Shown here one piece after another: positions 1 to 32,000 of a stretch of 32,000 bases of DNA. Under the pieces are notes generated by a model, which was not told the DNA's origin, ran no database searches, and saw nothing but the letters and a program-made list of their open reading frames with translations. Origin of the DNA: Candidatus Omnitrophota bacterium. GTDB taxonomy: Bacteria; Omnitrophota; Gorgyraeia; Zapsychrales; JANLHA01. Made by a program: the position numbers and the translations under genes. Within the stretch, counting starts at the first letter, position 1. The number at the start of each line of letters is the position of its first letter. Where the stretch lies: the NCBI GenBank assembly GCA_963662715.1, contig OY759724.1, positions 1,080,001 through 1,112,000 of the forward strand. Direction: 5' to 3'.

Positions 1-3000
1 ACTGTAAGGATTTTTCAAGATAGGCCTCGATTAAGAAATCCTCCTTATCGGCATCGCTCCTGTGCCGGGAGAGATGGAGCTGTTCCCGGGCCAGCATTTC
101 ATAAATCTTAGCCGCACTTAAAAGCACGTCCATTCTCTGCGGATAAAGCGCCACAGCCCGGTCAATATATATCTGACTCCGGGTCCACAATTTCTCCCGT
201 GTATCAGGATCAGTTTCCTGACCTGCCAGGTTTGAGTATAAAAGGGCCAAAGCGCAATGCGCGAGCCCCAGGAGAGGATCTTTATCAACCGCGCGAAGTA
301 AATAAGATTCTCTTTGTTTCACGCTGTCGCAACTGGCAGCCCTGTTGAAGTCAAGAAGCGCCGGGAAAGATACTCCGGCCCATCGGGACCAGGGAAGGCG
401 TTCCAACTGTTCGGAAGACATAAAGATAATCTTTTGGCTCCGCTGATCCTCACCGATAACGGCAATCATAAGACTGTCATAGGATTTCTTAAAGTCACGG
501 TTCATAAGATCGAGGGTCAAAATACGATCTTCGTCCAGCCCGACAATAACGATAACATGCCATGTTTCATGATATCTATGCTCCATCGCGTTCACCGGCA
601 CAACCCTGGCTTCAAATCCGCTTTCCCGGGCTATTTCGTGATAAATAACAGAAAAGACCAGACAGTTGGCCATATTTAGTTTCATAAAGACTTCGATATC
701 TCCCTTGGCATTTCTGGTCGAAGGAACCGGGAAAACATTAAACTGCAAAATGTCAAACCAGAATCGGGCGATATCATTGAGGAACAAGGTTGCTTTTTCA
801 TCGTCCTCCATTTCTTGGACACGGGTTCTGATTCTTCGGGAAATATCATTTAAAGTTAAATTTTTAAACTGCCCGGAAAGAATCTCAGGGGAGTCCGAAG
901 ACATGAGTTCAGGAATAACGGCCCGGATATTGTCCGGCACAACGTCGGCAAATGTCCGGTAACGAAGAAGCCATAACGGCAGACGCTGATGAACGGCCTC
1001 AAGCAATTCTGTCCTGTGATATTCGTCCAGCACCGGAGAAGATCCAGGAATAAAACCAGCCGCTGCCACCGGTGCTGCCATAAGGATGCTTTTTTCAATT
1101 TCCACGGCGGCAATTTTATCCGTCAGAACGTTAAAGGCATTCAAAGGAACAACACTTTCGTTCCTGGTGGATAACCGCACATCTTTCAGTTGTTTGTGCC
1201 AGAATCCCCCGGAGTTGGCCGTCATGTTGCTTATAATGCACGTTCTGCAATCAGCGTCGGCCAGCATCCGGACAAACGTTCTCAGCAGATTTGTCCCGTA
1301 ACGGGAACCCCGCCCGTGTGCATCCCGGGCGATAACAATGTAAAATAACTTGCCCTGCTTATCGCCTGTGTGGACATAATAGGTCAGCTGCCCGACAACT
1401 TTCCCGCCCCGGGCCATGATAAGGATATCCTGCACAAAGTCATCAGCCAAAAGCCCGATACCATAATCCAGCGGCGGCTCAACATCTCCTTCGTGCAATC
1501 GGTATTCTCTGGGGAAGGAACTTTTGCCGTTATTTCCTAATGCTTGATATAGAGATAAAACATGGATATCGTCATCTCTTCTTGTTGATAAAATAAACTT
1601 CCCGTATAATCTGGCGGCGTCACTTAAAAGCCTGATGTTCGCAAATTCGGAAAACCGGTATTCCTCATCCAGCGACAATACCTTGCTGATGAATTGAGAA
1701 TCACTAAAACAGCTATTTCTGTCGACCTGAACGACGGCATCGAATGCCCGCCCTTTCACCCCTGTCCCTTCCTCTGAAGCAAGAATTCGCATTAATACCT
1801 CACCGACACCCTGACCGAATGAAGAGGCCGTCTGAGCCAAGGATTCCAGTGTCTGAAGCTTTTCAGAAAAATATAATTCTTCCCACCTCGTTTTGATCTG
1901 ATAGACAATCGGCTCCTCCTTCCCCTTCGCAGCGTCTTTTGTCACCGGGGAAGAATGATATTCTGCTGACATTCCAGCCATTGAGGACATATCCTGGTCG
2001 CCGGATATGTCCTGTTTCACCGGTGAACTGGAAGATGTCCCCCCTTCTTCCTCCGGGGAGGTCTCTTTGAGTTTTTCCTTATTGACATTCAAGAAATCCC
2101 ATAGCGGCTGATACATTTCATATATTTTCAGCAATCCGTCTATCAGCCCCAGCAGATAATAATAGTACGCTCCGTTCGCCTCACGCTGGTTCACCATCTC
2201 CAAAAGCTCTGGCTCTTCATCTATAAAGTAAAGACTTCTTTGCAAATCCTCATCTCCCTTAAAAAGGTTGTCGGATAAATAGTGCATGACATCACCGCGG
2301 AAATGTCCGTTCTGAGCTTCATGGTAGGAGAAAGATTCGATGCCCAGCAAATCAGGGCTGATCATTGCAAATAAGTCACAAAGATCCTGTCGGAAACCGC
2401 GCAACCCGCGGCGGTTTTCGCGGTCTGCCATCTGGAGAGACCGGCCGTGTTGATCCCGCCAGATAAAATAATTATCACGCTCGAGACTGTCTTGAATAAA
2501 ACTCGGGGAAATATGAGACGTCAGCGGCTGGACTGTTCCCATCGTATAGAGTAAAGGATATAAGATGTAATTATGAACACCGTTTCGAACAAGTGTCCCC
2601 GGATGCGTAAACGTCAGCGTCTTTCTCCCGGGCAGAAAGCGGATCAAAGGCTGGTTGGACATCAGGCCGACAACCTGTCCCGAATGTATATCCAGCAAAG
2701 GAGCTCCGGAATCACCCAAATACATATCAGACATGTCCGCAATCACCTGTTCTTCGTCCTTGCCCGGGATGCTCCTTGTTCCGATAACCTGACCTTCTTC
2801 AATAGCCGGTACGCCCTGGACAAAACGCTTTCCGGAAATGAGAACAACGCGCTTGCCGATAGAGCTTTTTTGGATTTTTAAAACTCCCAGTCTTTCATGA
2901 TTTAAAGAAGACTTCGAGAGACGGATAACCGCCACATCGTTGAGAGTATTGATCCGATTAGCTTCCGGCTCCCAGACTCTCTCTACACTGTCCCTGTTGG

Positions 3001-6000
3001 TCATAATATGACCGTAAACCTCCCGGCCGGAAGGCAAAACCACCTTAACGGTTTTCTTGGAGACAACCCCGTTATTTCTATCCGTCCACTCTGTATACAA
3101 GCCATGTTTGCTGGTAAACGCATAATAATTATACGGGTCCTCATCAACGACAAAACCGGAAAGCCCGTAGTTAACATTGGCCAATGAACCTAAACGGATA
3201 ACAGCTGATTGACCTTCCCTAAGAGTCTTTTCTCCTTCTTTACTCCATTCATCCTGCTTTAATAAAGACGGGGCGCGATCCCTGTTAAAAGCACTTAACA
3301 CCGCCGAAGAAACACGCGTACCAAAATCCGCGTCCTGGTGGGACGATTGAGGCCCGTCCTGCAAATGAATCTTTCCTGAAACCTCCTGGTCGACCGGGAG
3401 GAAAAACGCTGTCTTTCCAGCATGCCGCTCCCGGGAGTGAAATTCACTCACCGGAGAGCTGGCGCCCTTCAATAATCCCGCAACATCGTGTGACGATATG
3501 CCAACGCCCGTAACCCCGGCCTTCATCAATTCAAACGCCATACGGGAAAGCGCCCGCATGAGAATGAGCCGGTCATGCTGCCAGTCCTCCGGGATATTTG
3601 CCGTAGCCCGTTTAGCCGCCTCCAGTGTCTGACGGGCCTCGGGCAGTCCGTACATAAGTTCGATCTTGGCCGCACGGATCCAAAAGAGCGCTACTGTCCT
3701 GAGACGGTAACTGCTGACATAACCGTCTCTTACCGGATCGACCATTTCTTTGGCCTTCGCAAGGTGTTCTTTGCCGTCCTTATGTCTTCCTTCCGCAAAA
3801 ACGATCTCGGCAAAGTCAAGATGCGCTTCGTCAAACTCGAAAGCCCTCGGAGGAGCTATATCCAAGAAGGCCATAGCCTGCTCAAAAGTCTGCGCGGCCG
3901 ATTCAAGACCATGCTTCTTCTCAAACCGGTAGATCTCAAGAAGCCCCTTGAAGATATCTTCCTTATGCAAAGCCGTATCGTGATACAAATAGCTCAACTG
4001 ACGTTTGGCCTTCTCAAGAAAGGCGCGGCTTCTCTCTGTGTCCTTTGAGACGGTTATCTCCGCCATTTCAACCAGCGTCCTGATCTGAAGGAAATAATTG
4101 TAGCCCTGCTTCAAAACCTCTTCCGCCTGCTCATAATGTCCGCTCAGTGTTTCCATAAGCGCAAAAAGCCTTGACGACTCGGCGCGCTGCTGGGCTTCCA
4201 GAAGATCGATCATATCGTGCCTCTCCGCGGCGCACTGGGCAAGCGTCATGGTTTGAAAAGCCGTGGGCATCCCTAAATGCCATTTGACAAGGGCGACTTC
4301 GGCCAGGGCGCACGGCCGCTCCAGCATAGATGTTTTGGCAATAGCCATCGCCGCTTCTTCGGCCTCCTGCAATAAGCATTCCGCATTCGGCATATTGCCG
4401 TCAAAGTCATACCGTTGCTTGGCGATCCTGGCTAATGTCCTGGCAAGATGATAAAGATTCCGGTTTTGCACTTTTCTGGAAAACGTGTTTAATATCCGTA
4501 TGGTCTTGATAGCCTCTTCATACTCGCCTAGTTCTGTCAGGAATTCAGCAATTTCGGCAATGGCTTCCGGAGAGTCCGCCTCCCGGGCTTCTTCTTCTAT
4601 ACGGGAAAATGTTTTAGACAAGGCCAGCCCGGCTTCAGGCGAAATCACGACCAGAGCAGCCGGCTCTGTATCAGCGGCGGGTTTTGCAATAAGCAAACGG
4701 TAATTCCTGTTGCCCGTTCTTTCTACATCCGGGTTATAAGGATCAAACTTGTAGGATATCCAACTCTGCGATCCGTCAGCAAAAACGACAAGAAACTTAT
4801 AATCTATTTGATGCTCCTGAATAACAACGCTTAACTGCCAGAGGCCATCTTGTTCAACCATCTTAAATTCTTCGTTATCTTCATCGTTCAACCATCGGTT
4901 AAAACTCCCGCCCAGGAACACAGATTGGATTTCCTCGTGTCGTCCCCCTTGCGGTTTAAAAACAAAGGTCACTTGTGTCCCGCCGTCTTCCAGGATTTCA
5001 CAAGCAGGATAGGCGCCTTCTTCGGGCAGGCTCTCGGAAACCGGGAATATGAAATCTCCGTTATTGGCCCACATCCTGGCTTCTGCGAACAAAGGATCAT
5101 CCAATCTCATTCCGTGAGGAACGGAAAAGAGGGTCATCCCGATCTGATCATCGTTAAAGAACACTGTTCTGGCCTTTATCACAGCTGTCAATTCGTAGAA
5201 CATGTAGCAGAAACTTGAAAAAACACTTCCCCGGACACCGGCCTTTTGCGCCTTGGCCGGGATCGCCCGCCAGTCGGACGGATGATTAACCGGACCGACC
5301 CAGAAATAAAAATCAAGGTCATGGACAGGAGTCTTGTCATAAAGATGAGCCAGATATACACCCGAGTTCAAAACAGAGGCGTTGTCGCCACGGCGTACAA
5401 CCGGCGGCTCCTCACGGTCATCGGCATCCCAGGTCTGGAAATACATAAGATTGTTATTCTTATATCTTAAAAGCGTACCGGCACGAAGTACGACCTCCCG
5501 GCTTCTGCCCCAGGCCCGGGCATAACCCTCTTCATAGGCTTCCAGCATGCGATCAATGGCAGAATCTTTCAGTTCTTCCCCGCCGAATTTCAATTCCGCC
5601 CAGAGAGCAATGCGCAAAGACCTAAATTGCTCTAAACGATCATACAATGAAGCCTGATAACTGTGGGAGAGATCCGTGAACCGGACAGAGGGCTTTCCGT
5701 CGTCGTAAGAGATTTCAAAAATTTCGGGATAGATATTGCCCGTGGAATAGTCTATATGTTCCCGGCAAAGATCCTTAAGACGCAATCCTTTTCTGTGTTC
5801 TTTGCCCAGGGCGAACCCTAAGGCTTCCAGCTCCTTATTTTGTATTACCGGAGAACTCGTATTCTTTTTCTTTGTGTCCTCCCGGGAACGCAGTTGGGAG
5901 ATTTTTGTCCGGGGCATGGGGGTATCTTCTGTTGCGGTATTCCGAAGCTGCCGCCGCTGTCTTGCGCGCTGAGACAATGCTTTTATAAAATTTACCGTTC

Positions 6001-9000
6001 TGACCATAAAAAGACATATATCGCCGAGGGAAGACAAAGTCTCCGCGGCATACTTTCTCAGTTCCGGCCACATATCTTCTGCTGTGATTTTTTCAGAAAA
6101 ACAATCTTTAGTCAGCCGGGAGGTTTTTATGAGCATACGCAATATAGACATCTCATTCCGGATGACAATTTGCCTCAGGCTGGCGATATCCACTGGATCA
6201 ATCAAGCCGTTTGACTCAAAAAGTTCTGTCCCCATCCATTCTCCGTGCTTTCTTATGTGCCGTCTGAAACGGATTTTATTGGACGCTGTTAATTTAATTA
6301 AAACATCCGGTTTCACGGACAATTGGGCCAATGCGGCCGGCGCCTCCGTGCCGTCAATTATGACGACAGGACGCGTCAGGCGGGCATAGACCATAAGCCG
6401 GGCCAATTCCCGAACCATCGCCTGTTCTGAGGTTTCTCCTTCACGGCGCACGGCCTTCCTCTTTATCGCATCTATATTTAAAACCTTTATTTCCTGCGGC
6501 GTGTAGGATGCCAGGCCGATAGTCTTGATCATCTCGGCAAACATTGTTTTTCCGGTGCTGACACGGCCGGTAATCACAACAAGCGCTCTGTCTTTTATTT
6601 GGGACAAAACCTTATTTACGGAAAAATATCCTTCGAATACATTCCCGTTTTCAATCCTTTCTGCTTGTTTATGAACAGGAGAGCTGACCGGGTTGTTCTC
6701 GGAAGGACTCCTGGCCCTGCCGTCATTCCGGAGAGTAAAGAACCGGCTTATTCTGTTGCTCATTTTTTCTCGAGAGGCGGTGTCCCTCTCACCTAAAGCC
6801 GGCTTTCCGGTTTTCCTCTGCTGTTTTTGATCTTTTTCCCGTATAGGAGAACTCTGGCTTAAAGAGGCAGGGCCCTTTTCCTGCTCATTCGCCCAAATAT
6901 GGAATTGGGAATACTCAAAATCCGGGATTTCTTGAAGAACCCGTTTCTTATCTTTTAACGTTCCTTTAATAATATCGATAACAGTTCTGCTCTTTTTCTT
7001 TTTATCGGCCCCAACCCGAGTAGGAATCCGTATCCGCATCAACAAATCATAATCATGGATCAACTTGGTCCCCTGGACACAAAGGCTTTCCAATCTCTGA
7101 GATTTTATTTCCGCAAAATGATTCAATAACGGCTGGAACAAATCTTCTATAGGATCCAACTGCTCTATTTCAATTCCCGGATGCTTCCGCCATAAAGCCA
7201 GCAGAAGGGCCTCTAATTGGTTTAAATCTTTTCCTGTCTTGACCGCTATGTTTAATGGTAAATCTTTTGTTCCTTTTTCCGTACGCCAAACTCGGGAAGG
7301 AGCCTTGATATCAGGGATAGACATTAAAATCTTCCGGATGTCCTGCGGGGTCGTCTGATGCCCTGGCGATTCCCGGACGTCCAAGGCTATTCTATATACC
7401 TGCTTTGAAAAACCGGAAGTCTTAACGGATATTCTCTTAACAACGAATTTTAAAATTTGCATGGCCCTCAGCACGGCCAATAAACGTCCCGGCCTTGCCG
7501 CAGAGAATGATATGTTGATGGAATAATGACCTCTCCGGCTTTTCTCTTCATTGACAGTTAAATCCAAATTACGATTTTTCAATCTAGCGGCCGATTGCCT
7601 TAATTCCTTCAGGAGAATCTGACGGGTTCCGATCAATTGAACAAAACGGTCAAAGTCATCCGTGCATTCCTGCAACGTTCCCCTTGACAATGAATATGAT
7701 ATCCGCAGTAATTCTTCCTGCCGCAGCTGCTGTTCTGCGGAAGACAACGCCTCCACGCTGCCAGCCTGCAGCAAATCAACCAGCTGTTCCTGCCCCAAAG
7801 AGAAAGCATAACGCTTCATATCATCCCGGTCTATCACCCCTTGCCAGCAGGCTAAATATAATTCAAACTTATCTTTTAAATGTAGCCTTTCGGCCAAAGC
7901 GGACGAAAACCGGGAGAAACCGTAAGCATGGGTAATCCCGGCTTGTGCCAACAACTGCCGTTCTCCTTCTCTGCTGAGCTGCGCACGGGCTTTTCTTTCT
8001 AATCCCCAGACAGAGACGTAAAGTCTGGCGCGCCGGGTTTGCATCTTACATTCAGGAACATCAGGCTTCGCGGCTGCCGTGCCTCCCGAAGGCAACAAAA
8101 GCACATCCCCGTCTTTAATCTCATCCAGCATTTCCATCTTTTTAACGACTTTCAATGACGGGATAATCTCATCAACCTTAATCCGGACCTTAAATGTTCC
8201 GCAATAGATGCCCTTGTAAAGGCGGTCTATCTTTCGATGAGCGGCCACATCAAGAGCAATAGCCCCTTCCGGCAGACTGAGCGGGACATAATCATATTGA
8301 TCTTTACCCACCTGCTTAGCGACCAATACCGTAACGGACTTTTGGGCTCCGTAAAGATGCTGTTTGCGGATATTCGTCAACGTAGTGATGTAATCATATT
8401 CAAAATGCTGGGTGAGCCGGATATGGTTGAAAAGATCCAGGGCCTGTTTTGCCAAAGCCGGCTCATCTTTCCGCATGGAATAAACCGAATGTTTAGCGGT
8501 CCCCTGCCGGTATATTTTATAATTCTCTTCGCTGATAATAATAATTTCGATATACCGGCGCTCTTCTTCTTTTTCATATTCAGACTCCCCGAACAGAATC
8601 TGATAAGCTTCATACTTACCGCCCGTTTGCCTGGCCCGGTAAAATTTCTTTAACGGTCTGGAGACATGCTGCCATTCCGGCATGACAAACGGCAAATTCA
8701 GCAACACCGTCAACACGATGTGAATATCCTCCTCCCCTTTTACAACAAACATGCCTCCCCAAATATCACAGATCGGGTCCGTACGGCCGTCGGCCTGGTA
8801 CCGGTCTTCTTTACGGCTGTAGGAATAGGTGCTCTTAAAACGAACAGCATTTTGAGTTTTGGCCATAAAATCAGCCATATATTCCGGGATTCTCCCCGCA
8901 GGGATAAACTGTCCCGCAACTTTTTCTATCTGGCCGTGAAGGTAACCGTTAATATCCGACCATAAATCCCTGAGAGCTGTTTCCGCCGCCCTTCTGCTTG

Positions 9001-21000: not shown

Positions 21001-24000
21001 AAAGAACGAGCGGCTGCTTTTGCCGTTCTTCCCGATATCCTTCCAGAGCACGAAGCAGGCTGTAAAGACCCAGCATGTTGACCTCCAAACTATCGAGTTT
21101 CTTTTCACGGGTTTTAACAATATCGGAAAGCCAGATAATGGCGTCCGGCTCCGAATCAAAGACCGCGTCCCTCACCTGCTGATCGTTTCTGACGTCAAGT
21201 TTGACAACTTTCGTTTTGAGGCCTTCTTGCGTCCCGTTAAAACCGGAGATTCCCGATAAACCTGTGACGATGATCTCCCGGACCTGCGGCATCAGTTCGC
21301 TGATTTTTCTATACAACGATCTTCCGATAAAACCGGTTCCCCCGATCAGCAGGACTTTTTTGACCGGGTGAACTTTTGACGGTGCCGGTTCCGTTATTTT
21401 TTCACGCTCTCCTAATAACGGGGCCTCGGTCAAAAATTCCAAAAATTTTCTCGCAAGCTGCGTTTGAACCTCATAACCGCAGCGGGCATAAAGTTCAATC
21501 ATCCTGCCCGTTCCCGCCGCCAAAGCCTGGCGGCCTTTCAGCGTCCGCATCGCAGCCGGGCTCATCATCTGACCTATTCTCTGAGGAAACTGCGCTGTTG
21601 ACACGACGTCTTTCATTGAAGCCTGCAGGGACTCTTTATCCTCCTGATACCATGTCCATAAGAATTCCATGAACTCATTGATACGAAACGCCCAGGGGGA
21701 ACAAACCTGGCAATGCCGATCAATTCGCGGATAAGTTTTAAGGAAACTCTGCCAGAGATTTCTTCCTATGACATCAGGATCAACGCCTTGCACAAAATTA
21801 TATAAACTTCCCCCGCCGGAGTACCCGCGATGATCGCACGGGTACATTCGCCCGTTGGGGGCAATAACGCCCGTAAACAGCATGGCCCAGCATTTCTTGG
21901 CTTGGCTCACAAACGGCTTTTGTTCGTGACGGCCGATCCTTTCCATATCATCTGTTCCATGCATGGCAACAACGGAATACTTGTGGTTCGAAAAGCGTTG
22001 AGAAACATCAAACAAGGCTTCCAGGTCACGGAAATGAGAGTTGAGAACTTCCGCGGTCATTAACCCGGTTATATCGAATTTAAACCGCAAAGAATCAACT
22101 CCCAGCTCCTGCATATCGGAGGCCATAGTCAGGATTTCATGAAAATTCTTCCCGGAAATGACAAAGCCCACGTTGATCATGGTGGAGAGCTGCTGCAACC
22201 TTTTCAGGCTGACGAGATCCGCCATGTCGGCCACTATGCCCTGATAATCTAATTTCTGGTTTCTTTTAAGCTTGCGGAAGGTTTCTTCGGAAGCGGCATC
22301 AAGGCTGACATGGACATAATCCAATAAATGCAACACGTCCTTGATTCTGTGCAGTCCCAGCCCGTTCGAGAAAACACCTTTTCTTATAGAAGACGGCAGG
22401 TTCCGAATAAGGGCAGGGATCCTGCGGCCGAAGCTGCCCTCCAGGGGCTCGCCGAACAATCCTGATAATTTGACCAATTTGAGTGCACCGTGATAATGCA
22501 ACTCCTGCACCACGGAAGTATAAATATCAAAAAGCCGGTCACTGATAGAATGATATTCTTTCTGGGTCTGTCTGATTTCCGGTAAAGACAATATCCGCTT
22601 TCCGATACAATGTTCACACCCCATCGAGCAATAAGGGCTCTGGATCTCTAACTCCGTCAATACGTGAGCATATTCGCCTCTTTCCAACGCTTCGAATACC
22701 TGAATGATGGACTCATGCTGTTCAAGCAGGAAATCAAACTCATAGGTAAAAGGAATGCTTCCTTTGCTGAGGTAATCGTAAAGCCGCCGTTCAAATTTCT
22801 TTCTGGCCGCTATTCTTCCTAAATGATTTGACTCGTCTATCGGGGATGAGGCCGGCCCCCTATGATCCTCTATAGATTCTTGATCCTCTGCGTGCTGCCT
22901 TACGGAACTGCTTACGGCCTGAGCGAGCTTCCGGACATCTCTGTCGGATGAAAAATCCCGGGCAAATCTTCTGAATCTCTCTATGCTGCCCTCGGCATGG
23001 ACAAGCTGCCCGGGATAATCAAAAATATTCATCGGAGCATAAGGATGCCTGAAGACAAACCGATAATTCATTTCTTCCAAGAACCGCAAACGCAGTATTT
23101 CTATAATGGCTCGTATCTCTTCCAGGCTGAGTTTATTCCGGACGGTCTCGTTATAGGACCGAACCATGACTTCCAGTTTGTCCCGCCCGTACGGAAGCGG
23201 AGCGGCGATATCATCCCGTCCCAATATTAGATTATTAAACTCGAGCACGCGGATATCCGTCACAGCCATGGCGAAATCTATTATCGCAATAACATGTCCA
23301 TAAACGTTGAAGATGAAATTCCCGACATGCAGGTCATTATGAACCGGAGATTCCGGGAGTCCTTCGGCAGAATAATTGCGGCTGAAAAGCTCGGTCTGCT
23401 TCATGATGAAAGGCTTATACGTAAAGAATAGTTTCTGTCCTGCTTTACTGACCGGGGAATCCCTCTCTATGCCGTGGAAAGCTCTTAAAGATTTCTCCAC
23501 TTCACTAAAAATCTGTTTTCGTGATTTATAGCGCCGTACGCCTTCCGGCTTAAATCCGAACAATACATTATTTATGTGAGCGGCGCTTCTGGCCGTGGCC
23601 TGAAAATCTTCTAAACGGGCATCCTCAAGACGGATCTTTTTCCCGTCTCCCATAAATTCTTCCAGGATATAACGCGCCCCGTCACATTCAACGATATAGT
23701 TCAAGGCCGTATCCTCTGCCGTTCCGGAGACCCGGTAAAGTTCCGGCACGGGCAGCCCGGCACGGTGCAATTCTTTCATAACAGAAACAATAAACCGGGC
23801 CCTTGTCACAGGATCCTGTATCCTTCTTAAGACCTTTTCTTCCTCTTGCGTGATAATCAATACCGGAGGATGCGTGCTTCCGATGCCTCCTGTCAACACC
23901 TTGCTCCCGGCTTTCCCGATTCCGTAATACTTCCTCACAAGCGCTACGGCTTGATCCTGCCCCTGTTCCACCGGCGAACTCGTTATCGGGCTTGGGCCGG

Positions 24001-27000
24001 ATGTCGTTTCATCAGACAGGCTGACCGCCTGGGCGAAGATGTTTTGCTCCTGCTCGCTTAATTCAAAGCTCTTGCCCGGGAGCCACTGGGACAAAAATCG
24101 TGCTTTCCTTAAATGAAGCTGCGCCTGCAAAATGTGCTCGGTAAGACTGCGGAACAAATTGCTTTCAGCCGGCTCATCCTGCTCCAACCCCTCCGCATAT
24201 CGGCTCACAAAAGCGGCCTGGTAAAAAATGGTCCAATACAGGTCCGGATGTCTTTGAACAACATGATACCGGGTGTTCCGGCGGAACTCATTAAAGGTCT
24301 GGCGGAAGGCCTCGGCCCGGCTCATCCCCTCTCCGGTTAAATGACTCGTGACAAAACGCTGGCGGTAATCCTCCATGAAGCGGTTTAATGTTATGGCAAC
24401 GATAACCTTATTTTTCAGGAATTCAAACGCCTCTTGAATTTTATTATGGTCTTGTTGAGTCTTATAAAGTTTGGCCAGCAACGGCTGAACATGTTTCCGG
24501 AAGACAAGAGCTAACACTCCATAATCCGGTTCGGACGGATCAAGATACGCCGGATGCTCAGGATTCAGGAAATCCTGCTCCAGAATCATGCGCGGGAGTT
24601 TATACTGTCTGTACCGCAATGGTTGCAATGCTTTAAAAACCCGGGTCTTAAGGGCATTCTGCCGCCGGCTCACTTCCTGGCGTAACCGGTAAACTCTTGC
24701 ATGATTAAGACCCCGGACAATAGCCCGGCTTTCTTGAATCCTGAGTTCAAGGATCTGTTTTGTGACTTCAAATAATCCCCGGAGTTTAATAAACGCATGA
24801 GGACCTTCATCTAACAGTTGTAAGCTGTGCGTAAGAATGATACGGGCCAGTAATTTTTCTTCTACGAGAACATTTTGCAGTCTGTTTAACTGTTCTAAAA
24901 TAAGCGCCCGGACCCTGTTTGTGTCTTCATGAATGATATCCATCAGACGGTCGAGCAGATGCCTCAGTTCATAAATCCATCTTATTTCATCCAGTTCAGA
25001 ATCAACCATATGATCAACAGCCCGGAAAGCGTCCCATAAACTAGCATAAGTCAAATCACCATAAGTTTTCACGGCTGAAGCATTCCATTGACCGGCTTTT
25101 TCGAACCGCTGTCCGCGCAAATGATATAAGCCGTCTTGCTCTCTTCTTAACCGTTGTGGCGGGGTATGGCGTTCCTGCCGTAAGCGTCGGCTAAGATGGG
25201 TTTCTTTAATTTTATGCAGGGCTATTAATGTAGATGTCATAATCATATTAACGGCCGGCTCGTTATAAACAGCAAGCAAGGCCTGGACGTGATCAAACCG
25301 CTGCAATAAACCTTTCGGCAGGTTCATATCTGCAAAGAATCGAAGCTTGAGCTGAATGTCTTCAGCCACGTCAGCGAGTTCTGCCCGGAAGGGAGTTTCG
25401 TCTGATGCGGCTTTACGCTTTATAGTCAAAATGTAAATACGGAAATTCCAATCAGCGACTTGCAGCGTGACGTCCCCTAAAGCGGCTCGATACTCGAGAC
25501 GGAATTGCTTAAATTGTCTTGAAGCGGCTTTAGAAGCAGATGGGGCTTTCTGATTAAGGTCAATATGAGATATTGTGCGGTCAATAATATAAGAAGGATA
25601 CGCGAGTTTCTTTAATATGTTTCTTAAAATGATCCGGCGTGACCGGGTCCATTGCTCTGATCGCGAAACGGCCCGCTGATAAATTTGAGCTCTCAGGGCC
25701 TGAACATCTTTGGCGGGGGAGAGATCAAGGTCATTTACAAACAGTTCAACTTGTTCTTTTATCTTTTCCGGCGGGCCGTGAATCTTCCCGGACTCCTGCA
25801 GATATTCATAAACAGAGATACGATAGAGAATGTCTTCCAGATTCTTAAACCCTTGCGTAATGTACGGCTCTTCTTTATACCGGGGATGACTGTAACGCTG
25901 CCCGGCCCACCTCATGGATTGCGCGCTGATCGCATGTACAGGGCTGGGCGCCGCTATCGGGGACGCGGACTTCGGCGCGGCTTTGCCCGATTCTTTGGAA
26001 ACCGGCGAGCTGGCGGTATCGTCTGAATTTTCTGACCGTACTTCGTCCCACAATTGTTTAAGCAAATCCCTGTCCGATCTTGATATTTGCTTATAATGTG
26101 CACCCTCTTGATGGAATATATCGTTTAGCGCAGCGGCAAAATCAGCAGCAGGGTTTTTCCGTAGATAATAGCGAATAACATTTTTGAAAGCTTTGCTTCG
26201 TGCCAGCGAACCTAGCTCTCTCTCATACATCTCTCCCTTCTTATTTAATAATAAGGCGTCCAGCTGCCCTTGTTCCCATAGACGACGATACGTGAGTTCA
26301 TAAACTAAACTTAGCTCGATCATTAACTCTGTCTGATCTCTATTAATCACAATTTCATATGTTTTGTCTGCCTTAATCACAGAAAGGGCAAGAGTACGGT
26401 CGGCGCCAAAGGTAGCTCTTGGGAATCCGGCAAAGAAACTATGAGGCAGGGCTATAATCTTTATCTGACCTGCTTTTTCTTCGCTAAAGCCAAAGAAACT
26501 TCTGACTTGTGGGGCGATTTCATTTAAGTTGTGACGAGCTGCTCCTTGGATATGTGTATTAATATAGCTTTTCACCTGGCGCGCTGCAGAATGCTCAATA
26601 TGCGCGCACCCGCCACAGAAGATGAATACTGCAGCAACGATAATAACAAATGGCGGGCTGTGAATGAACCGGGCAATATACCTCCCCAAGCCCGCCATTG
26701 CGCCGGCTGTCCTGTCGATTCTAATCCGCTCGGGTGACTGAACGCCCTTACATGAGGCGGAAATGTTAAAGTTCTTGTTCACCGGAGAACTGGATAAATC
26801 TTTATCCAAGGATGTCCTTGATGAACCGGCCTGCCTCCCTTTATTCAAGGACATGTTAAACCGCTCTTCAAGCATTCTATTCAGTATGGGGTCTTCCAGC
26901 ATGACTCTTATTTTAGCCGCATCGCTGTACACATTGTTTAATCCGGGTTCAACATTTTGACTGAAAGGAGCGGTCATTTTCAGAAGATCTTCAACCGGAG

Positions 27001-30000
27001 CTTCCCTGTTAAGCACAAAAGAAACAAACGGGTTTCTATTTACGGCATCAACTATCGACGTTAAATCCTGATGCTGTATGTTCGCCAAATCAAAGAACTC
27101 GAAAAAGTGACTGTCTATATTAACGGCACCGCCGGGATAAATATCCAAATGATCCCTTGCCGTACTGAGCCTGCTCCCCCTCTCATGGATATCCTCATCA
27201 TACTCCTGCGCATAAAGTTCCGCGCTCAGGTGCCTTGCTTCACCGATAAAACTCAGTAGCCCCCGGCGCACATGCGGCAACCTTAATCCTTTACTTGATA
27301 ATATGTCCTTAAGCTGAATATAGGAAGGATCTTGCCGGACAAAATAATCAAAAACGCTTAACGCGAGCGTAATTTCAAAATGATAGGTATTTTTAACGGC
27401 TTCAATAATGTTGACGATATTACCGATGGGGATGACCGGCTTTCCTGTAGGCCCTTTTTGGCTGAAGACAAACTGATTGACGCTTAGCTGGATAATCAGA
27501 TCTTTATCCCCTGAGCACAGCAAAAGATCCCTTAAAACATTTCTGGTTATCTGCGGTGTTTTTGCCCAGAAACCATTTGTTGCCAGGGTTACGACATTCG
27601 CGTCCACGTGCCTAAGCAACATACGGACCAAATCAGGTTTAAGGAAGGGTTCTCCGCCGGTAATGCCCAAATGACTTATCCCGCCGAAAGTGTTGATCCT
27701 TTCGATAAGCAACATCGCTTCCTCCCTGCTCATCGAAGGCAGCCGTTTAACCCAGTTCGGCCAATAGCAATGCGCACACCGCAAGAGGCACCGAAGAGTG
27801 ACATATACATCCAACGATTTTATGACCGGTGAGCCGGCACGTTTCACTGCCTTTGCAGGGCCGGCCATATATTCTATTGGGCTTGAAGAAGAAGTCTTGG
27901 TTTCTTTTTCTCTGGATTCTTCTCTGGAAGCCAATCTATCACCTGCAATGATTGAAAGTGCCCCTGCTAACAGCGGGCCGGTCACGCCTAAAAATGTTTC
28001 TGCTTTATACAAGCCGTTTGCTTCCCGGCTGTGCATCCTTAATAATTCCCAGACTGTCTGGTCAATGTCCTTGCCGTACAATTGTTCTTCTTTGGCAAGC
28101 CAAACTTCTACGGCCCCTCCCCTGGTCTTTACCACACAAATAGCGCCTATCAGATGAGAATACGCGGCCAAAGGAGTCTTAACTTCTATTATTTCTCCAA
28201 CTTTGAATCTTCGCTTTGCTCTCTCGTTTATTATTTCTCCGACATACGGTCTGGCCATTAAAACAAATATCTTCTCTTTACCAAGAAATGTCTGAGCCGT
28301 ATGTTCAGGCCACATATTGAAAGCCATAATCTCACGGCACACCGTATCAGGATAGGCATTCCAGTTAACAAAAAGTCTCGGGATAATTTTACTTGCCCAT
28401 GCGCCCGGTTTTGTTGCCCCTTTCTGTTTCTTCAATTCAACTTTTCCTTCTGCAATAGCATTTACAGCGCTGACCAAAAGCCCGGCTGACAGAGGCGCAA
28501 GTTTCTCCGTAAGCGTGAAACAGGATTCCGTCAGACTTACTTCTACACCTTTCAATCTTGCAACAACCTCTCCGGTATCCCATCCTTCTTGTATCCTGTG
28601 GATAGTTATGCCTGTCTGTCTTAACCCGAATAAAACAGCGGCATGAACGGGTAAACCACCCCGCAATTGCGGCAACATCGAAGCATGAACATTAATAAAA
28701 TCGAATTTAAATGTTTGGGTAATTTTTCCTGTAATCTTATCGGGCCAAACACAAGTTACGCCAAGGTCCGCGTTTACTGTTTGTAAATATTCAATTAACT
28801 CATCGCTCTTTTCATCAACAAATACTTCGGTCCCATTTTCTTTTGCAATCTTAATGATTTCTTCACTTTCTCTCTTTGTGATTACGCTTACAACTTTAAA
28901 ATTTGCTCCTCTATCCGCAAGCAAAGACTGAAGCGATAAACGGCCAAACAGTGTCCCTTCGCTGAAAAAGACAATATTGAGCCTGCCGTAAGGTTTGGCG
29001 TAACCGGGGTATTCTTTTACCAATCCGGGAACCGGGTTACGAACTGCGGTCAAAAATCTTCCGAAATCAAACTTCTTCATCGGGCTGGAGGCCTTGCCCT
29101 CCGCATTCCTGATAGCGTCCTCAGAAACCGGAGAACTGAGACTATCCTGAGGCAAATTATTTCTTTTTGCCCATTGTTTTATTAAACTTTTCTCTGTATG
29201 TATGGGCAAATTAATAATAAAGACCGTCCCAAAATTTTTCCTGCTTTCTATTCTGAGTTTACCCTCCAGGAAATTCACGACATTCTGAATCTTCGGCAGA
29301 CCGAATCCGAACCCGGATATATTGAACACGCCGGGTTCCGAACTGGTAAACCCAACCAAAAATGCCTTGTCCAGGGCCTCCGCCGACATCCCTATCCCAT
29401 TATCGATTAGCCTCATCACAATTCCGTCTTCTTTTACATAAAGAACACATTCTATACGAAGCGGGATACCGGGCCTTCGGAACCAGATAGCATTCTTAAC
29501 AACTTCATTGCAAACCAGGTCAAACATTCCTGGCTGAGTAAAGAGTTCGGGGACTTCTGTTTTCTTCTCAACTTGGTTAAATGATACGGGCAGCCCTTCG
29601 GACCATAACGCGATGTACTCTGCAATGACCGCGTTCATTTTTTCTTCAAGAGAAACATTGTGTCGCAATATTCCGTAAGGCCTGCCGTTCATAAGCTCAT
29701 TCGCGTGCTCTAACAGCCAGATAATAAAATAGTGAATATCGAACATCTCTTTTAAGATAACCTGCACCTCGTTGCTTGTTCTGCTTTCTCTGCTAAAAGT
29801 CTCCGGGTTAGATATCAACATCCAGAAATCACTTAAACGCTTGTTTTCATCTTCTCTGGAGAAACCGGTGGAATGTCTGGGGAATCGTCTTTTGAAAATC
29901 TTTCCGTATTTGGCAAATGGGTAACTGAACTGTTCGCATAAACCGTTCCCGCTATGCTTATCCAGCTCCTTTAACAAGACATTAAGCCTTGTTACATTGT

Positions 30001-32000
30001 CAAAACATACGCCGCGCACCTTAGCGGAAAATTCTTTTCTGAAAGATTTCCCTTCCTCTTCCATAGTCCTGTTAAAGGCACCGGCGACCGCCGCAAATGT
30101 ACTCATGTTAGACTCCAGAGGAATGCTCCAGCTGCCGATTTCAAGCCGCCCAAACCTTCTAAATTTTTGATTGCTTTGTTTTGCGCCTCCCTTTACTCTG
30201 GGTTCCCCCACCGGCGAACTGGTATTATCTGTTTTACTTAACCTTGCCGCTTCGGGTTGGATAATGCCTAAGGCCACCAGTTTTTCATAAAGGGCCTTTT
30301 CCTGAATGCCCAAAGCTTCGGCAAGCTGCCCTCTCGACAGAACTTGATGGTTCGCCTCAATGAACCGCAATTCCTCCTTCTTCCTCTGAATCTCAGCCGT
30401 GGTTTTTCCAAGATCAACAGCCAGTTGGGCTTCATCCTCTTCCCTTCGCCTTGAGAGTTCTGCCTCTTCCTGATTCTGCCATTTATGCAGTTCGATATCC
30501 TCGTTAATCAATCTTCTCATATATCTGCGGTCGGCTTTATGTTGTCCGCTGTCCTCCCATCCGTATGCGGCATAGATGCCCTCAAGACCTTTCTCAAAAT
30601 AAATATCAGCGATCACTCGAAAGCCCTCCAGCATATTCTCGATGATCGCCACCGGCTTCTTAAAATGAACAGCCAGAGCCTTTGCATCCTGGGCTCCATT
30701 GGCCACAAACAGACGCCACAACAGTTTTCTTTCTTCCCGGCTCCACCGGGTATATTCAAACCAGGTCAGCCTCATCTTGATTGCACTCGTGTTCCATTCG
30801 AGATCACCGGCCAAAGTGGCATTATTCAATTCCGCATAATGGTTTCTGATATAAGCTAATTTTTCGAGCTGCTGCTTGGTTGTTTCAACATCCTTCCTGA
30901 TCTGAGCAGCTAACTTTTCTGTCTGCTCGGGCGCGGGCATCTCGCCATACGGCAGACTCTCTTTAATCCACTGAATCAATATTTTCTCCTTGGCAGGGTC
31001 CCATTTTCGCCTTCCCTGAGGACCGGCTTTCCTGACCTGCGGGGCAGGGGCGGCAGCACTATGAGGGAGTTCTCCTTCCTGGACTCCGGCGGTATCTTCT
31101 GGTTCTGATGGCGATAAAGCTTCTGCTTTCGACGGGATATCCGGACAAATTTCTGTAGGAACAATATTATTGAGGACAAGACCGGTGATGTCCAGATAAT
31201 CTTCCCCGTAAAATTCATTGATAGAAGACATCCGGGAAAAGAGAACATATCCGTGCCAATTCACGGACACGACCTGCTGCCGGGACTGATTGAAAATATA
31301 AAACGTCCCTTTCGAGCCGTACCGGTAAAAATATTTATTTGCGGCCTGTTGCCCTTCGGCCTCTCTTTCGTTGATGGTTTCTTTGATCTTCTTTTCGTGT
31401 GCACGTGGATCACGCTGCCTATCAATCTTAAAGTCCCTTTCTCCCCGCAAAACGGCCACGATATCCCGGCTTAACCCCGCGTTAATCTTTCCGGCCCCGA
31501 TCTTATCCGCCGCGCCAAGAACATGAGCGGCAAAACCTTCCTCCGAAAATTCCAGAATACGCATCACGTCACCCAGAGGCCCAACGACAACAACTAAAAA
31601 TCTTTGGCCCTTTTCCAAATAAAAATGTTTATAAAACCGCGTCGCACCGCTTCTGTCCTGATAACGGCTCCCCCGGAAAACTTTCCCTTCCCTTAAAACA
31701 TGGGCAATATTGGAAATCACTTCTTCTTCATTAACAATCCTTCTTGCCTGAATATCTGCCCCGAAATACGTATCCCCGGTTCTGGCATGATTATTCACAA
31801 GCATTTCGCCAACCCGCTGCCATCCAAAAGGCCGTTTCCCGCGGTAAGAGGGGTACCCCTGGAATAAGACACAGACGTCAGGGACAACAACTTCCCTTCC
31901 TCTGTGTCGGAAGATCAGCTCCAAGCCTTGCCTTTCCACAACCGCAAGCGGCAGGAACCATCCGCTCTGAATCTCCCGGGTTAAACCGACCGCCTTTATC
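1..32000 (-). CDS. Internal fragment of one giant multidomain ORF (at least 10,666 codons; neither start nor stop codon lies in the window)
   Basis: The minus-strand frame with codon first bases at 31999, 31996 ... 4 was translated by hand end to end. It gives protein-like sequence with no in-frame TAA/TAG/TGA. All recognised motifs share this one frame: three CxxxCxxC, GDSGAP, GGTGFIG/YxxxK, Walker A, HLHFQ, VLVVGPGSG and 20 SSPV. I checked each anchor coordinate as equal to 1 mod 3. The supplied ORF track has no entry in this frame but has entries in the other five, as expected if the ORF is open at both window edges. Confidence 0.9.
2..330 (-). other. TPR-like helical repeats (C-terminal-most part of the ORF in this window)
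   Basis: Translation: ...LLRAVDKDPLLGLAHCALALLYSNLAGQETDPDTREKLWTRSQIYIDRAVALYPQRMDVLLSAAKIYEMLAREQ... This is a helix-hairpin pattern directly after a transglutaminase-like core, a SirB1/YchA-type arrangement. Confidence 0.4.
470..700 (-). other. Transglutaminase-like (papain-fold) Cys-His-Asp core
   Basis: Translation: MANCLVFSVIYHEIARESGFEARVV...ETWHVIVIVGLDEDRILTLDLMN. The Cys codon is at 662-664, His at 557-559 and Asp at 509-511, in the canonical order and spacing. Confidence 0.45.
1185..1440 (-). other. GNAT-family N-acetyltransferase domain
   Basis: Translation: DILIMARGGKVVGQLTYYVHTGDKQGKLFYIVIARDAHGRGSRYGTNLLRTFVRML. An acetyl-CoA binding motif A-like R-G-x-G-x-x-G-x-x-L lies at 1283-1330. 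Confidence 0.6.
2645..3205 (-). other. Trypsin-fold (PA clan, S1/Trypsin_2-like) serine protease domain with complete catalytic triad
   Basis: His lies in FTSKHGLY (codon 3104-3106), Asp in LNDVAVIRL (2936-2938) and Ser in MYLGDSGAPLLD (2708-2710). They occur in the canonical H-D-S order and spacing, followed by GQVVGLMS. Confidence 0.8.
3515..4570 (-). other. TPR-like / all-helical repeat region
   Basis: About 350 aa of amphipathic helix pairs, for example EAIAEIAEFLTELGEYEEAIKTIRIL, GHYEQAEEVLKQGYNYFLQI, SRAFLEKAKRQLSYLY and GKEHLAKAKEMVDP. Confidence 0.55.
4728..4975 (-). other. CBM48/AMPK-beta-type (E-set) carbohydrate-binding-like beta-sandwich
   Basis: Translation: VTFVFKPQGGRHEEIQSVFLGGSFNRWLNDEDNEEFKMVEQDGLWQLSVVIQEHQIDYKFLVVFADGSQSWISYKFDPYNP. 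It matches the V-F-x-W...V-x-L-x-G-S-F-N-x-W...G-x-W...Y-K-F pattern. Confidence 0.55.
6200..6590 (-). other. P-loop NTPase / small-molecule kinase-like domain
   Basis: Walker A motif LVVITGRVSTGKTMFAEMI at 6542-6571, followed by a hydrophobic strand VVIIDGTE (Walker B-like). Confidence 0.65.
7300..7530 (-). other. ACT-like domain (C-terminal part of an RSH-type module)
   Basis: Translation: HYSINISFSAARPGRLLAVLRAMQILKFVVKRISVKTSGFSKQVYRIALDVRESPGHQTTPQDIRKIL. This is a beta-alpha-beta-beta-alpha-beta pattern, positioned as in RelA/SpoT C-termini. Confidence 0.4.
8095..8290 (-). other. TGS domain
   Basis: Translation: DYVPLSLPEGAIALDVAAHRKIDRLYKGIYCGTFKVRIKVDEI...LDEIKDGDVLLL. It matches the TGS pattern (P-x-G-[AS]-T/I-x-x-D-x-A ... 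G-x-x-V ... L-x-D-G-D). Confidence 0.5.
8460..8860 (-). other. RelA/SpoT-like (RSH) nucleotide pyrophosphokinase domain, partly degenerate
   Basis: VRFKSTYSYSRKE gives an exact R-x-K-x-x-x-S-x-x-x-K (8807-8842). CDIWGGMFVV corresponds to D-x-x-G-x-R with Arg replaced by Met (Asp codon 8765-8767). RYIEIIIISEENY stands in place of EIQIRT (8525-8548). GTAKHSVYSMRK stands in place of G-x-AAHW-x-YK. Confidence 0.5.
10800..11200 (-). other. Possible degenerate GHKL-type ATPase-like module
   Basis: Translation: VLAHTVENMMDLY...DILLRLISNGASF...FFGGRGEGNAIM...GLVVEVIIAK. It loosely follows the N-box, G1, G2 and final-strand order. The call is weak. Confidence 0.25.
12890..13345 (-). other. Class I SAM-dependent methyltransferase domain
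   Basis: Motif I RVLVVGPGSGIDAW at 13253-13285, an acidic/loop motif II region EIIYAIGLN, and a motif IV-like FDFVLWNMQ. Confidence 0.65.
14460..14655 (-). other. Small Cys-His-Asp (transglutaminase/papain-like) core within a 226-aa SSPV-delimited module
   Basis: Translation: GDHLCREFGYILGQVLAQIL...KTHYVIVFYYQTIPVLGIDPTFGQF. The Cys codon is at 14642-14644, His at 14519-14521 and Asp at 14471-14473. Confidence 0.35.
15990..17255 (-). other. Class B (cobalamin-binding domain plus radical SAM) enzyme module
   Basis: The N-terminal part is B12-binding-like: RILLVGPTNP...PPFGLYRIASFLKVFGFEVDVYDA...DMIGFSML...VIIAGGQGAQF (about 16830-17255). It is followed by VRVYFETECPMGCDFCSS, with CxxxCxxC at 16565-16588. 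Confidence 0.75.
17890..18430 (-). other. HIT-superfamily (GalT / Ap4A-phosphorylase / GDP-hexose-phosphorylase branch) nucleotidyltransferase-like domain
   Basis: KCPLCD at 18413-18427, then FHIVIVPLDH, then NAGNSQRHLHFQGYY with the HxHxQ signature at 18143-18160. Confidence 0.55.
19360..19990 (-). other. Possible Tiki/TraB/ChaN-like domain (tentative)
   Basis: A C-terminal PIVVGFGALHFEIIKNE (19367-19402) resembles the VVGxxHL motif of this superfamily. An upstream GTVYLRGYEH could be the N-terminal motif. The call is weak. Confidence 0.2.
20084..20194 (-). other. Internal lipoprotein-signal-peptide-like segment (Met, basic n-region, hydrophobic core, lipobox L-S-G-C)
   Basis: Translation: MAKMFRINGARAPGIFRMILIFFILLPQLVFLSGCAS. 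The in-frame ATG is at 20194-20192 and the Cys codon at 20092-20090. The reading frame is open upstream, so this is not a demonstrable gene start. Confidence 0.55.
20400..21360 (-). other. Extended-SDR NAD(P)-dependent epimerase/dehydratase domain
   Basis: Rossmann motif KVLLIGGTGFIGRS (GGTGFIG at 21323-21343). Catalytic S...YDLSK has Tyr at 20915-20917 and Lys at 20903-20905. Also IYVDDAAEAM. Confidence 0.85.
21670..22670 (-). other. Radical SAM domain 2 with Cys-rich C-terminal extension (SPASM/twitch-like)
   Basis: ELEIQSPYCSMGCEHCIG has CxxxCxxC at 22607-22630. Also LSGLFGEPL. Downstream cysteines lie in KKCWAMLF...GRMYPCDH...HCQVCSPW. Confidence 0.75.
23040..23950 (-). other. APH / choline-kinase / homoserine-kinase-II-type phosphotransferase domain
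   Basis: Catalytic loop VHNDLHVGNFIF at 23315-23341, followed by VIAIIDFAMA (the Mg-binding D-F equivalent). The N-lobe-like part is YILEEFMGDG. Confidence 0.7.
26606..26698 (-). other. Internal signal-peptide/TM-like hydrophobic segment with Cys-rich end
   Basis: Translation: MAGLGRYIARFIHSPPFVIIVAAVFIFCGGCAH. The in-frame ATG is at 26698-26696. It lies 27 codons after the SSPV at 26780-26791. Confidence 0.45.
27008..27814 (-). other. Radical SAM domain 1
   Basis: LDVYVTLRCLLRCAHCYW has CxxxCxxC at 27767-27790. HLGITGGEPFL is a GGE SAM-binding motif. Confidence 0.8.
28030..28984 (-). other. Formyltransferase (Fmt/ArnA-N-like; N- and C-terminal subdomains)
   Basis: NIVFFSEGTLFGRLSLQSL, then FDFINVHASMLPQLRGGLPVHAAVLFG (about 28670-28693), then TGITIHRIQEGWDTGEVV, and a following beta-barrel-like C-terminal subdomain. 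Confidence 0.8.
29200..29550 (-). other. GHKL / histidine-kinase-type ATPase domain (HATPase_c)
   Basis: N-box DLVCNEVVKNAI (about 29490-29512), G1 LIDNGIGMS (about 29389-29406), G2 SGFGFGLPKI, and GTVFIINLP. Confidence 0.75.
30362..31009 (-). other. Three tandem SANT/Myb-like tryptophan repeats followed by an HTH-like segment
   Basis: The three repeats are RKWDPAKEKILIQWIKE..., TRWSREERKLLWRLFVANGAQDAKALAVHFKKPVAIIENML and HKWQNQEEAELSRRREEDEAQLAVDLGKTTAEIQRKKEEL. They are followed by SRGQLAEALGIQEKALYEKL. Confidence 0.4.

Follow-up and report, generated by a model that had tools for sequence, protein, structure and literature searches.

The window analysed here is a stretch of 32,000 nucleotides (nt) from a Candidatus Omnitrophota bacterium (GenBank assembly GCA_963662715.1, contig OY759724.1, positions 1,080,001 to 1,112,000), and it is filled from end to end by a single minus-strand open reading frame (ORF). 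When the window was translated in six frames, the minus-strand frame 31999..2 contained 10,666 sense codons and 0 stops, exactly as the original prediction for this DNA had claimed. The other five frames contained 314-678 stops, and their longest open runs were 106-217 codons. Given how often stops occur in those frames, an open run of this length has a probability of log10 P = -138 to -304, which bears out the earlier statement that the openness cannot be accidental (log10 P at most -138). The ORF was open at both window ends. Since neither a start nor a stop boundary was present within the window, the gene must be longer than 32 kb, a further point on which the original prediction was right.

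The guanine plus cytosine (GC) content by codon position followed the order GC1 > GC3 > GC2 in 21/21 of the modules described below, and the GC skew was steadily negative across the window. The uniform codon-position GC and the steady skew fit one continuous minus-strand coding region. The translation had an ordinary protein composition and was non-repetitive. Tandem repeats were sought in the window and none was found, and an all-against-all BLAST of the modules gave a single weak match, between two HATPase-like modules (E = 1e-3); the non-repetitiveness noticed earlier was thus upheld. The tRNAs and Rfam families sought in the window were absent as well. The junction motif between the modules was the only notable recurrent DNA in the window, and the other small repeat families resembled chance matches.

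Domains were called with Pfam and NCBIfam, and several of the matches lay below the curated cut-offs. The visible protein consisted of about 21 modules of 209-1,287 amino acids (aa), plus short spacers of 17-56 aa (Table 1). Recognisable enzyme or binding domains were present in 12/21 modules, and 9/21 had no match. It had been claimed that the protein is a chain of at least 20 unrelated domains. The number stood as a count of motif-delimited modules, of which there are 21; it did not stand for recognised domains, which came to about 18 instances from about 15 families. No family dominated, the most frequent one (radical SAM) having 3 copies. The catalytic signatures were intact in every recognisable enzyme (three CxxxCxxC, HxSLLPxxRG, HxDxxxxN, GxxGxxG with YxxxK, Walker A, the S1 H/D/S triad, and the transglutaminase Cys and His), and the gene is therefore under functional constraint throughout. 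A PADLOC defence-system scan of the window returned generic radical-SAM (viperin-like) similarity alone. We are highly confident that the window is the internal part of a gene of at least 32 kb for a multi-enzyme giant protein. Such a gene amounts to an operon in a single reading frame.

Table 1. Modules of the giant ORF, with window coordinates (aa numbered from the first visible codon; TM, transmembrane)
Feature	Coordinates	Strand	Evidence
Giant ORF, visible internal part of 10,666 codons, running past both window ends	2..31999	-	0 stops; codon-position GC
Module 1, aa 1-597, no known domain, N-terminus cut by window end; ends SSPV (30209-30220)	30209..31999	-	no Pfam match
Module 2, aa 598-958, HATPase_c (GHKL ATPase); ends SSPV (29126-29137)	29126..30208	-	PF02518 E 1.1e-12; DNGIGM box
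Module 3, aa 959-1375, formyltransferase N- and C-terminal domains; ends SSPI (27875-27886)	27875..29125	-	PF00551 E 1e-19, PF02911; HASMLPQLRGG
Module 4, aa 1376-1740, 17-aa spacer ending GSPV (degenerate, aa 1389), then radical SAM enzyme; ends SSPV (26780-26791)	26780..27874	-	PF04055 E 4e-9; CLLRCAHC
Module 5, aa 1741-2000, no known domain, TM-like segment aa 1783-1801; ends SSPV (26000-26011)	26000..26779	-	Kyte-Doolittle 2.31; no Pfam match
Module 6, aa 2001-2677, helical region without significant family; ends SPITSSPV (23969-23980)	23969..25999	-	Pfam/NCBIfam
Module 7, aa 2678-3054, APH-type small-molecule kinase; ends SSPI (22838-22849)	22838..23968	-	PF01636 E 1.4e-11; HNDLHVGN
Module 8, aa 3055-3879, radical SAM (weak) and NAD-dependent epimerase/dehydratase, no motif between; ends SSPV (20363-20374)	20363..22837	-	PF01370 E 1e-25; CSMGCEHC, GGTGFIG, YDLSK
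Module 9, aa 3880-4431, no known domain, internal lipoprotein-type signal peptide; ends doublet NSPV (18758-18769) and SSPV (18707-18718)	18707..20362	-	Kyte-Doolittle 2.37; MAKMFRINGARAPGIFRMILIFFILLPQLVFLSGCAS
Module 10, aa 4432-5718, DUF4922/HIT-like, B12-binding radical SAM enzyme and ~400-aa tail; ends SSPV (14846-14857)	14846..18706	-	PF16269, PF02310 E 3e-13, PF04055; CPMGCDFC, HLHFQ
Module 11, aa 5719-5967, 19-aa spacer (second SSPV 14789-14800), then 230-aa domain without family; ends SSPV (14099-14110)	14099..14845	-	motif scan, Pfam
Module 12 (M12), aa 5968-6421, N-terminal domain and class I SAM-methyltransferase (HemK-like); ends SSPV (12737-12748)	12737..14098	-	HemK2/MTQ2-like, 32 bits, below cut-off
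Module 13, aa 6422-6864, no family; ends SSPV (11408-11419)	11408..12736	-	Pfam/NCBIfam
Module 14, aa 6865-7073, HATPase-like, weakly similar to module 2; ends SSPV (10781-10792)	10781..11407	-	E 1e-3 to module 2
Module 15, aa 7074-7452, no known domain; ends doublet SSPV (9704-9715) and NSPV (9644-9655)	9644..10780	-	motif scan, Pfam
Module 16, aa 7453-8386, weak RelA/SpoT-like nucleotidyltransferase region; ends SSPI (6842-6853)	6842..9643	-	PF04607 E 0.0019, below cut-off
Module 17, aa 8387-8718, 56-aa spacer (SSPV 6674-6685), then P-loop NTPase or kinase; ends SSPV (5846-5857)	5846..6841	-	weak KTI12, DnaB_C, nSTAND3; Walker A GRVSTGKT
Module 18, aa 8719-9517, region without family and TPR-like helical region; ends SSPV (3449-3460)	3449..5845	-	TPR_19 E 6e-5
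Module 19, aa 9518-10019, trypsin-like (clan PA, Trypsin_2) serine peptidase and helical tail; ends doublet SSPV (2018-2029) and SSPV (1943-1954)	1943..3448	-	PF13365 E 1.4e-10
Module 20, aa 10020-10323, GNAT acetyltransferase; ends SSPV (1031-1042)	1031..1942	-	PF00583 E 1e-4; RGSRYGT
Module 21, aa 10324-10666, transglutaminase-core (papain-like Cys/His) domain and TPR, cut by window end	2..1030	-	PF01841 E 7e-4; MANCLVF, ETWHVIV

The 4-residue motif at the junctions, which the original prediction had mentioned only in passing, proved to be real. SSP[VI] occurred 23 times compared to 0.27 expected, with a maximum of 3 in 500 shuffles, and the Poisson p for SSPV alone was 6e-37. Two NSPV variants brought the total to 25 [S/N]SP[V/I] sites, and the consensus was [A/S/T]-S-S-P-[V/I]. 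None of the sites (0/25) lay within a Pfam envelope. In the 30-residue flanks of the motif, hydrophobic residues were depleted (0.20 vs 0.35, z = -8.7) and disorder-promoting residues were enriched (z = +6.9). The linkers between modules are thus polar and disorder-like, and each holds one or two motif copies. Five degenerate copies (GSPV, ASPI, SSPM, SSSV, and SSAV) were present, each 15-50 residues from a strict site. Doublets of the motif, 15-56 aa apart, made up about half of the junction regions (for example, 18707-18769, 14789-14857, 9644-9715, and 1943-2029). The architecture of the junctions is apparently new, and the motif is the most informative feature of the window; literature searches on SSPV with cleavage and on 'bacterial polyprotein' returned nothing relevant.

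Both Ser positions of the motif used AGY as well as TCN codons, and the Pro and Val codons varied too. Since these codons vary between junctions, the peptide seems to be conserved rather than a DNA site. The longest exact DNA common to two distinct junctions was 15 nt, and the copies of one junction DNA repeat family (D1) shared 17 of 18 nt. The preferred codons of the motif in the window were AGY-TCN-CCG-GTG, with a GTG bias at Val (p = 0.016). The two motif serines tended towards different codon classes.

The window DNA was compared with genome and metagenome contig collections in an exact-DNA search, and no copy was found; a megablast against phage and plasmid collections gave no match either. 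When two halves of the protein were searched against 5.8 billion proteins, four relatives at E < 1e-5 were found, all of 3,924-7,673 aa, and 3/4 of them shared M12 alone, at 26-31% identity. A search with an M12 alignment gave 17 loci at 26-32% identity, two of which were contributed by the metagenome scan. These loci came from metagenome-assembled genomes (MAGs) labelled Omnitrophota, FCPU426, Elusimicrobia, Planctomycetia, and Verrucomicrobiia, and from metagenomes. The M12-containing frame was open across the whole fetched 10-21 kb in five loci, and ORFs of 1,400-6,900 aa were present in others. In L017 (a Verrucomicrobiia MAG, 9698-11260), the M12 homologue stood by itself as a gene for 520 aa that includes a lipoprotein signal peptide of its own.

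The relatives were then compared for recurrent motifs. P0002 contained SSP 17 times compared to 1.0 expected (p = 1e-15), and the linkers concerned were of the GASSPV and SSSPI types. P0003 contained [A/S]RLA 12 times and GARLA 7 times, with ARLA occurring 9 times (p = 1e-9). PAM occurred 11 times in L020 compared to 0.7 expected (p = 3e-10), SR[LM]A occurred 5 times in L015, and a weaker SSS-type enrichment was seen in L018 and P0006. In P0002 and P0003, recognisable Pfam domains sat between consecutive motifs. M12 itself was flanked by SSPV on both sides in the window, was preceded by SSPL in P0002, and had SRLA on both sides in P0003. The Ser codon order in P0002 was TCN-AGY, the reverse of the AGY-TCN of the window, with CCG also enriched (47% vs 16%), and the motif codons of P0003 followed background usage. 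The reversed order in P0002 and the background codons in P0003 point to selection on the peptide within each lineage. A DNA-level recombination site was also considered as the meaning of the motif and was largely rejected, since the Ser codon classes vary in the window and are reversed in P0002; a residual bias remains.

The L020 locus lies on a 306 kb contig (Ga0209726_10000023), where the ORF was open across all 21 kb and the sole Pfam match was a pseudouridine synthase domain. Its [V]PAM motif was encoded as CCGGCGATG or CCCGCCATG, with junction-like spacing and no Shine-Dalgarno (SD)-like sequence upstream. P0002 (locus L002, GCA_042576685.1) carries the NCBI label 'Thermoproteota archaeon'. 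Since all M12 relatives came from bacterial MAGs and the 13.7 kb contig holds this ORF alone, P0002 is probably mis-binned.

Module 19 contained a complete catalytic triad, His9632, Asp9688, and Ser9764 (TSKHG, DVAVIRL, and GDSGAP), and its Trypsin_2 match spanned model positions 2-144 of 144. It is a candidate for the processing protease, for which the Cys/His module 21 is an alternative. The nearest sequence relative of any window segment was P0006 (locus L021, on a 2.3 kb contig of GCA_042562555.1), which is part of a further ORF of several modules and has two LOG-like (Lysine_decarbox) regions. A 68-aa stretch of P0006 was 44% identical to the N-terminal part of module 19 and broke off past the His region; beyond it came linkers with VSSS and then the beginning of a radical SAM domain.

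Strong hydrophobic segments were sought along the visible 10,666 aa, the true N-terminus being outside the window, and only two were found (aa 1783-1801 and 3953-3971; 19-residue Kyte-Doolittle averages of 2.31 and 2.37, respectively). The second belongs to a lipoprotein signal peptide of textbook form in module 9, MAKMFRINGARAPGIFRMILIFFILLPQLVFLSGCAS (aa ~3935-3972, window 20084-20197 on the minus strand), with a K/R-rich n-region, an h-region, and the lipobox LSGC at 20084-20101. This signal peptide sits more than 3,900 residues into the visible ORF, ~55 aa past an SSPV junction, and no further hydrophobic segment was found in the 6,700 residues after it. The first, TM-like segment (window 26597-26653) was without a canonical lipobox.

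Of the readings considered, the likeliest is that the giant product is a bacterial polyprotein cut at the SSP[VI] motifs, a reading inferred from the sequence, to which we give a probability of about 0.45. The [A/S/T]-S-S-P-[V/I] motif would be the recognition site for one common co-evolving factor, most likely a processing protease, which could be the trypsin-like module 19, the Cys/His module 21, or an enzyme encoded elsewhere. The giant product would then be cut at the motifs into the individual enzymes and one exported lipoprotein-like module, with all modules synthesised at the same level before being set free. A motif that is kept in 25 linkers and swapped at the same boundaries in other lineages is what is expected of a site for a co-evolving factor. 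A processing protease is favoured for that factor because the ORF encodes a clan-PA peptidase with a complete triad as well as a papain-like transglutaminase-core domain, and because the modules are autonomous units, with full-length enzyme domains and with M12 standing alone in L017. Furthermore, uncut export of module 9 would carry radical SAM, B12-, SAM-, acetyl-CoA-, and ATP-dependent enzymes out of the cytoplasm, and precedents exist in viral polyproteins, MARTX effector release, and IgA1-protease precursors. If both motifs of a doublet were cut, spacer peptides, mostly of 15-25 aa, would be released; given the several radical SAM modules, it is conceivable that these are peptide precursors resembling those of ribosomally synthesised and post-translationally modified peptides. 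More generally, we tentatively suggest a cellular polyprotein strategy, in which some uncultivated bacteria would hold entire enzyme sets in single ORFs above 30 kb. Cleavage of the product at co-evolving motifs, different in each lineage, would yield at least 20 enzymes, spacers, and at least one exported lipoprotein.

Several observations weigh against the polyprotein proposal. The cleavage itself is inferred, and the SSPV sites are predicted ones. The signal peptide of module 9 begins so far past its junction that it would not be strictly N-terminal after cleavage. In modules 8 and 10, adjacent domains are fused without a motif between them. At the first Ser of the motif, AGY was used in 17/23 cases compared to a background of 0.32 (p = 5e-5), and CCG was used at Pro in 20/25 compared to 0.50 (p = 0.004); this codon bias leaves room for a nucleotide-level or shared-ancestry component. 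Most other M12-containing giants had no enriched motif, and the motif must therefore be a feature of a subset of giants. P0003, an apparently complete protein of 3,924 aa, carried 12 GARLA-type motifs and no recognisable protease, and self-processing thus cannot be the general rule. As for module 19, no relative was found among PDB sequences. A search of 1.84 billion representatives gave two matches, one a spurious repeat protein and the other a 68-aa fragment, and the single-sequence AlphaFold model had a predicted local distance difference test (pLDDT) score of 33.

The same P0003 observation would suit a giant that is never cut, in which the modules stay tethered as one mega-enzyme and SSP[VI] is a linker motif with another role; we consider this possible, if rather unlikely. 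Proline-directed phosphorylation or glycosylation of its Ser could be one such role; binding of a scaffold or chaperone, or service as a hinge, could be others. S-P is the shape of a classic kinase target and the motif matches it, the APH-type and P-loop kinase-like modules could write such a modification, the linkers are disorder-like, and doublets 15-56 aa apart would suit bivalent binding. Moreover, a 2026 preprint treats such giants as single membrane-associated proteins (bioRxiv 10.64898/2026.06.07.730766). However, a plain hinge would not call for one exact 4-mer to be kept 25 times by selection on the peptide, and an internal lipoprotein signal peptide without a downstream stop-transfer segment conflicts with the cytoplasmic cofactors that the later modules need. 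In addition, translating and folding a chain of more than 10,000 aa of unrelated enzymes brings no obvious benefit if they are never released.

Separation of the products might instead occur at the ribosome, with the gene as a fused operon, either by internal initiation after the junctions or by a 'stop-go' event at S-S-P-V like that of viral 2A. The modules do resemble former stand-alone genes, as seen from the Met and signal peptide of module 9 and the separate M12 gene of L017. The motif contains Pro, which is a poor substrate for peptidyl transfer, and its mild codon bias could reflect an mRNA or tRNA effect. Nevertheless, an SD-like sequence with a start codon was found no more than 60 aa past a junction in 14 cases compared to 8.8 expected, and many modules had no Met for 80-148 residues. 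Internal translation initiation was thus not supported, as no systematic ribosome-binding site and start codon followed the junctions. Skipping of the 2A type needs about 18 residues, compared with the 4-5 conserved here, and such skipping is not known to function on bacterial ribosomes. An effect common to all ribosomes would also account less well than a co-evolving enzyme for the variation of the motif by lineage (GARLA, PAM), and we regard separation at the ribosome as improbable. Least probable of all is an artefact, that is, an assembly chimera joined at shared junction sequence or a non-functional, decaying locus. The lack of a copy in the public collections searched and the short DNA identity between junctions (17 of 18 nt in family D1) would agree with it. 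However, the 0 stops in 10,666 codons and the intact catalytic motifs exclude decay, and the longest exact DNA shared by junctions, 15 nt, is below the usual k-mers of assemblers. The codon-position GC and GC skew are uniform, and independent MAGs and metagenome contigs hold comparable ORFs that are open across 10-21 kb loci.

The original prediction had taken the gene for an unusual, and by implication unrecognised, class of mega-protein. That part did not hold. Omnitrophota giant genes for proteins of more than 30,000 aa were described in the 2023 preprint of West-Roberts et al., which suggests giant-protein cleavage and says that information on cleavage points is lacking (bioRxiv 10.1101/2023.11.21.568195). 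A June 2026 preprint sets out a class of giants, the 'multi-enzyme metabolic cluster' proteins, which reach 147,155 aa and have the same Pfam set as the window, including HATPase_c, methyltransferase, GNAT, and radical SAM; 80% of its clusters of proteins of at least 10,000 aa are singletons, and most giants are reported to be membrane-anchored (bioRxiv 10.64898/2026.06.07.730766). The window is a sequence-orphan member of this recently described kind of giant, and the class is not new. It shares with these giants an ORF of at least 10,000 aa, many Pfam families without a dominant one, and a vocabulary of HATPase_c, methyltransferase, GNAT, radical SAM, kinases, HIT-like, and TPR domains. It is likewise a sequence singleton, with homologues in Omnitrophota and neighbouring candidate-phylum MAGs. 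It appears to differ in having only two strong hydrophobic segments in the 10,666 aa visible, and it differs in its junctions, since neither preprint mentions recurrent junction motifs, linkers, or polyprotein processing for this class. The words polyprotein, cleav-, linker, junction, motif, and disordered do not occur in the text of the 2026 preprint (10.64898/2026.06.07.730766).

Compared with viral polyproteins (picornavirus 3C, potyvirus NIa, and flavivirus NS3), the window likewise has one ORF with several unrelated protein units, a clan-PA protease within the ORF, a short conserved inter-protein motif that differs between lineages, and short spacer peptides between some sites. However, it is cellular, at least 10 times longer, and encodes metabolic or tailoring enzymes rather than replication proteins, and its cleavage is a prediction. 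No specific relationship of module 19 to the 3C or NS3 enzymes was detected in the PDB or the 1.84 billion representatives. In MARTX toxins, a bacterial case, one ORF holds several unrelated enzymatic effector domains, and a protease within the chain cuts the unstructured linkers between them at a short motif. The window resembles them in its unrelated enzymatic domains separated by linkers. Unlike them, it has no Peptidase_C80, RTX, or glycine-rich repeats (the gene ends being outside the window), its modules look biosynthetic or cytoplasmic rather than toxin-like, and it is more than twice the size of the largest MARTX. The IgA1 protease of Neisseria and Haemophilus (S6, clan PA) has its cleavage sites beside proline, in linkers rich in Ser and Pro, and it processes the multi-part precursor from which it derives at a number of sites of this kind. 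It is thus a precedent, by analogy only, for a trypsin-fold enzyme that recognises S-P type motifs; it is an autotransporter with a beta-barrel domain, and module 19 has no sequence relationship to it.

Non-ribosomal peptide synthetases (NRPS) and polyketide synthases (PKS) are also very large bacterial ORFs with many catalytic domains. The window is without their carrier (PP-binding), condensation, adenylation, KS, and AT domains and without their repeated module logic, and it has no tandem arrays of one domain type as in repetitive adhesin, RTX, or Ig-like surface giants. Since the defining domains are absent from the window, the protein is not an NRPS/PKS, adhesin, RTX protein, or MARTX, which agrees with the earlier exclusion of NRPS/PKS, adhesins, and RTX proteins.

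Bacterial genes of 30-440 kb have been documented, and on whether their products act as one chain or as cut pieces the window gives a testable prediction with mapped sites for one subclass. If the motif is a cleavage site, such genes would be bacterial counterparts of viral polyproteins, with fixed-stoichiometry expression of a pathway from one ORF. The motifs would then form the first predicted cleavage map for bacterial giant proteins, and could be used to split giants for structure prediction and annotation and to search metaproteomes for diagnostic peptide termini. Even without cleavage, the motif would still represent a short linear motif system that is new and confined to giant proteins.

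M12 was the sole module widely common to other giants. Its predicted model (pLDDT 57) gave only a generic class I methyltransferase fold in a fold search. Beyond M12, aa 344-566 of module 1 (~220 aa) were 29% identical to an Omnitrophota giant ORF in L018, and the radical SAM part of module 8 resembled P0004. Conservation of module order between the window and its relatives was checked as well, and the order was not conserved. With few shared pieces and no conserved order, these giants are mosaics.

Some minor observations concern M12 and its surroundings. It has WNMQ or WNMP where NPPY is usual, and it was multi-copy in L011 (4 copies), L004 (2), and L015 (2). The M12 near the C-terminus of the P0003 giant resembles HemK/PrmC, a release-factor methyltransferase. 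Directly downstream of that giant (L003, 12003-12998) lies a class I release factor gene with PCRF and RF-1 domains, and this adjacency may be a coincidence. The 7,673-aa giant P0001 (locus L001, GCA_964604705.1) contained a long near-exact internal duplication (GLASVVDRKLQATGWAQAHPFYY... twice, with multi-TM segments), and its gene lies among ordinary chromosomal genes, adjoining Fic, DUF3800, and helicase genes.

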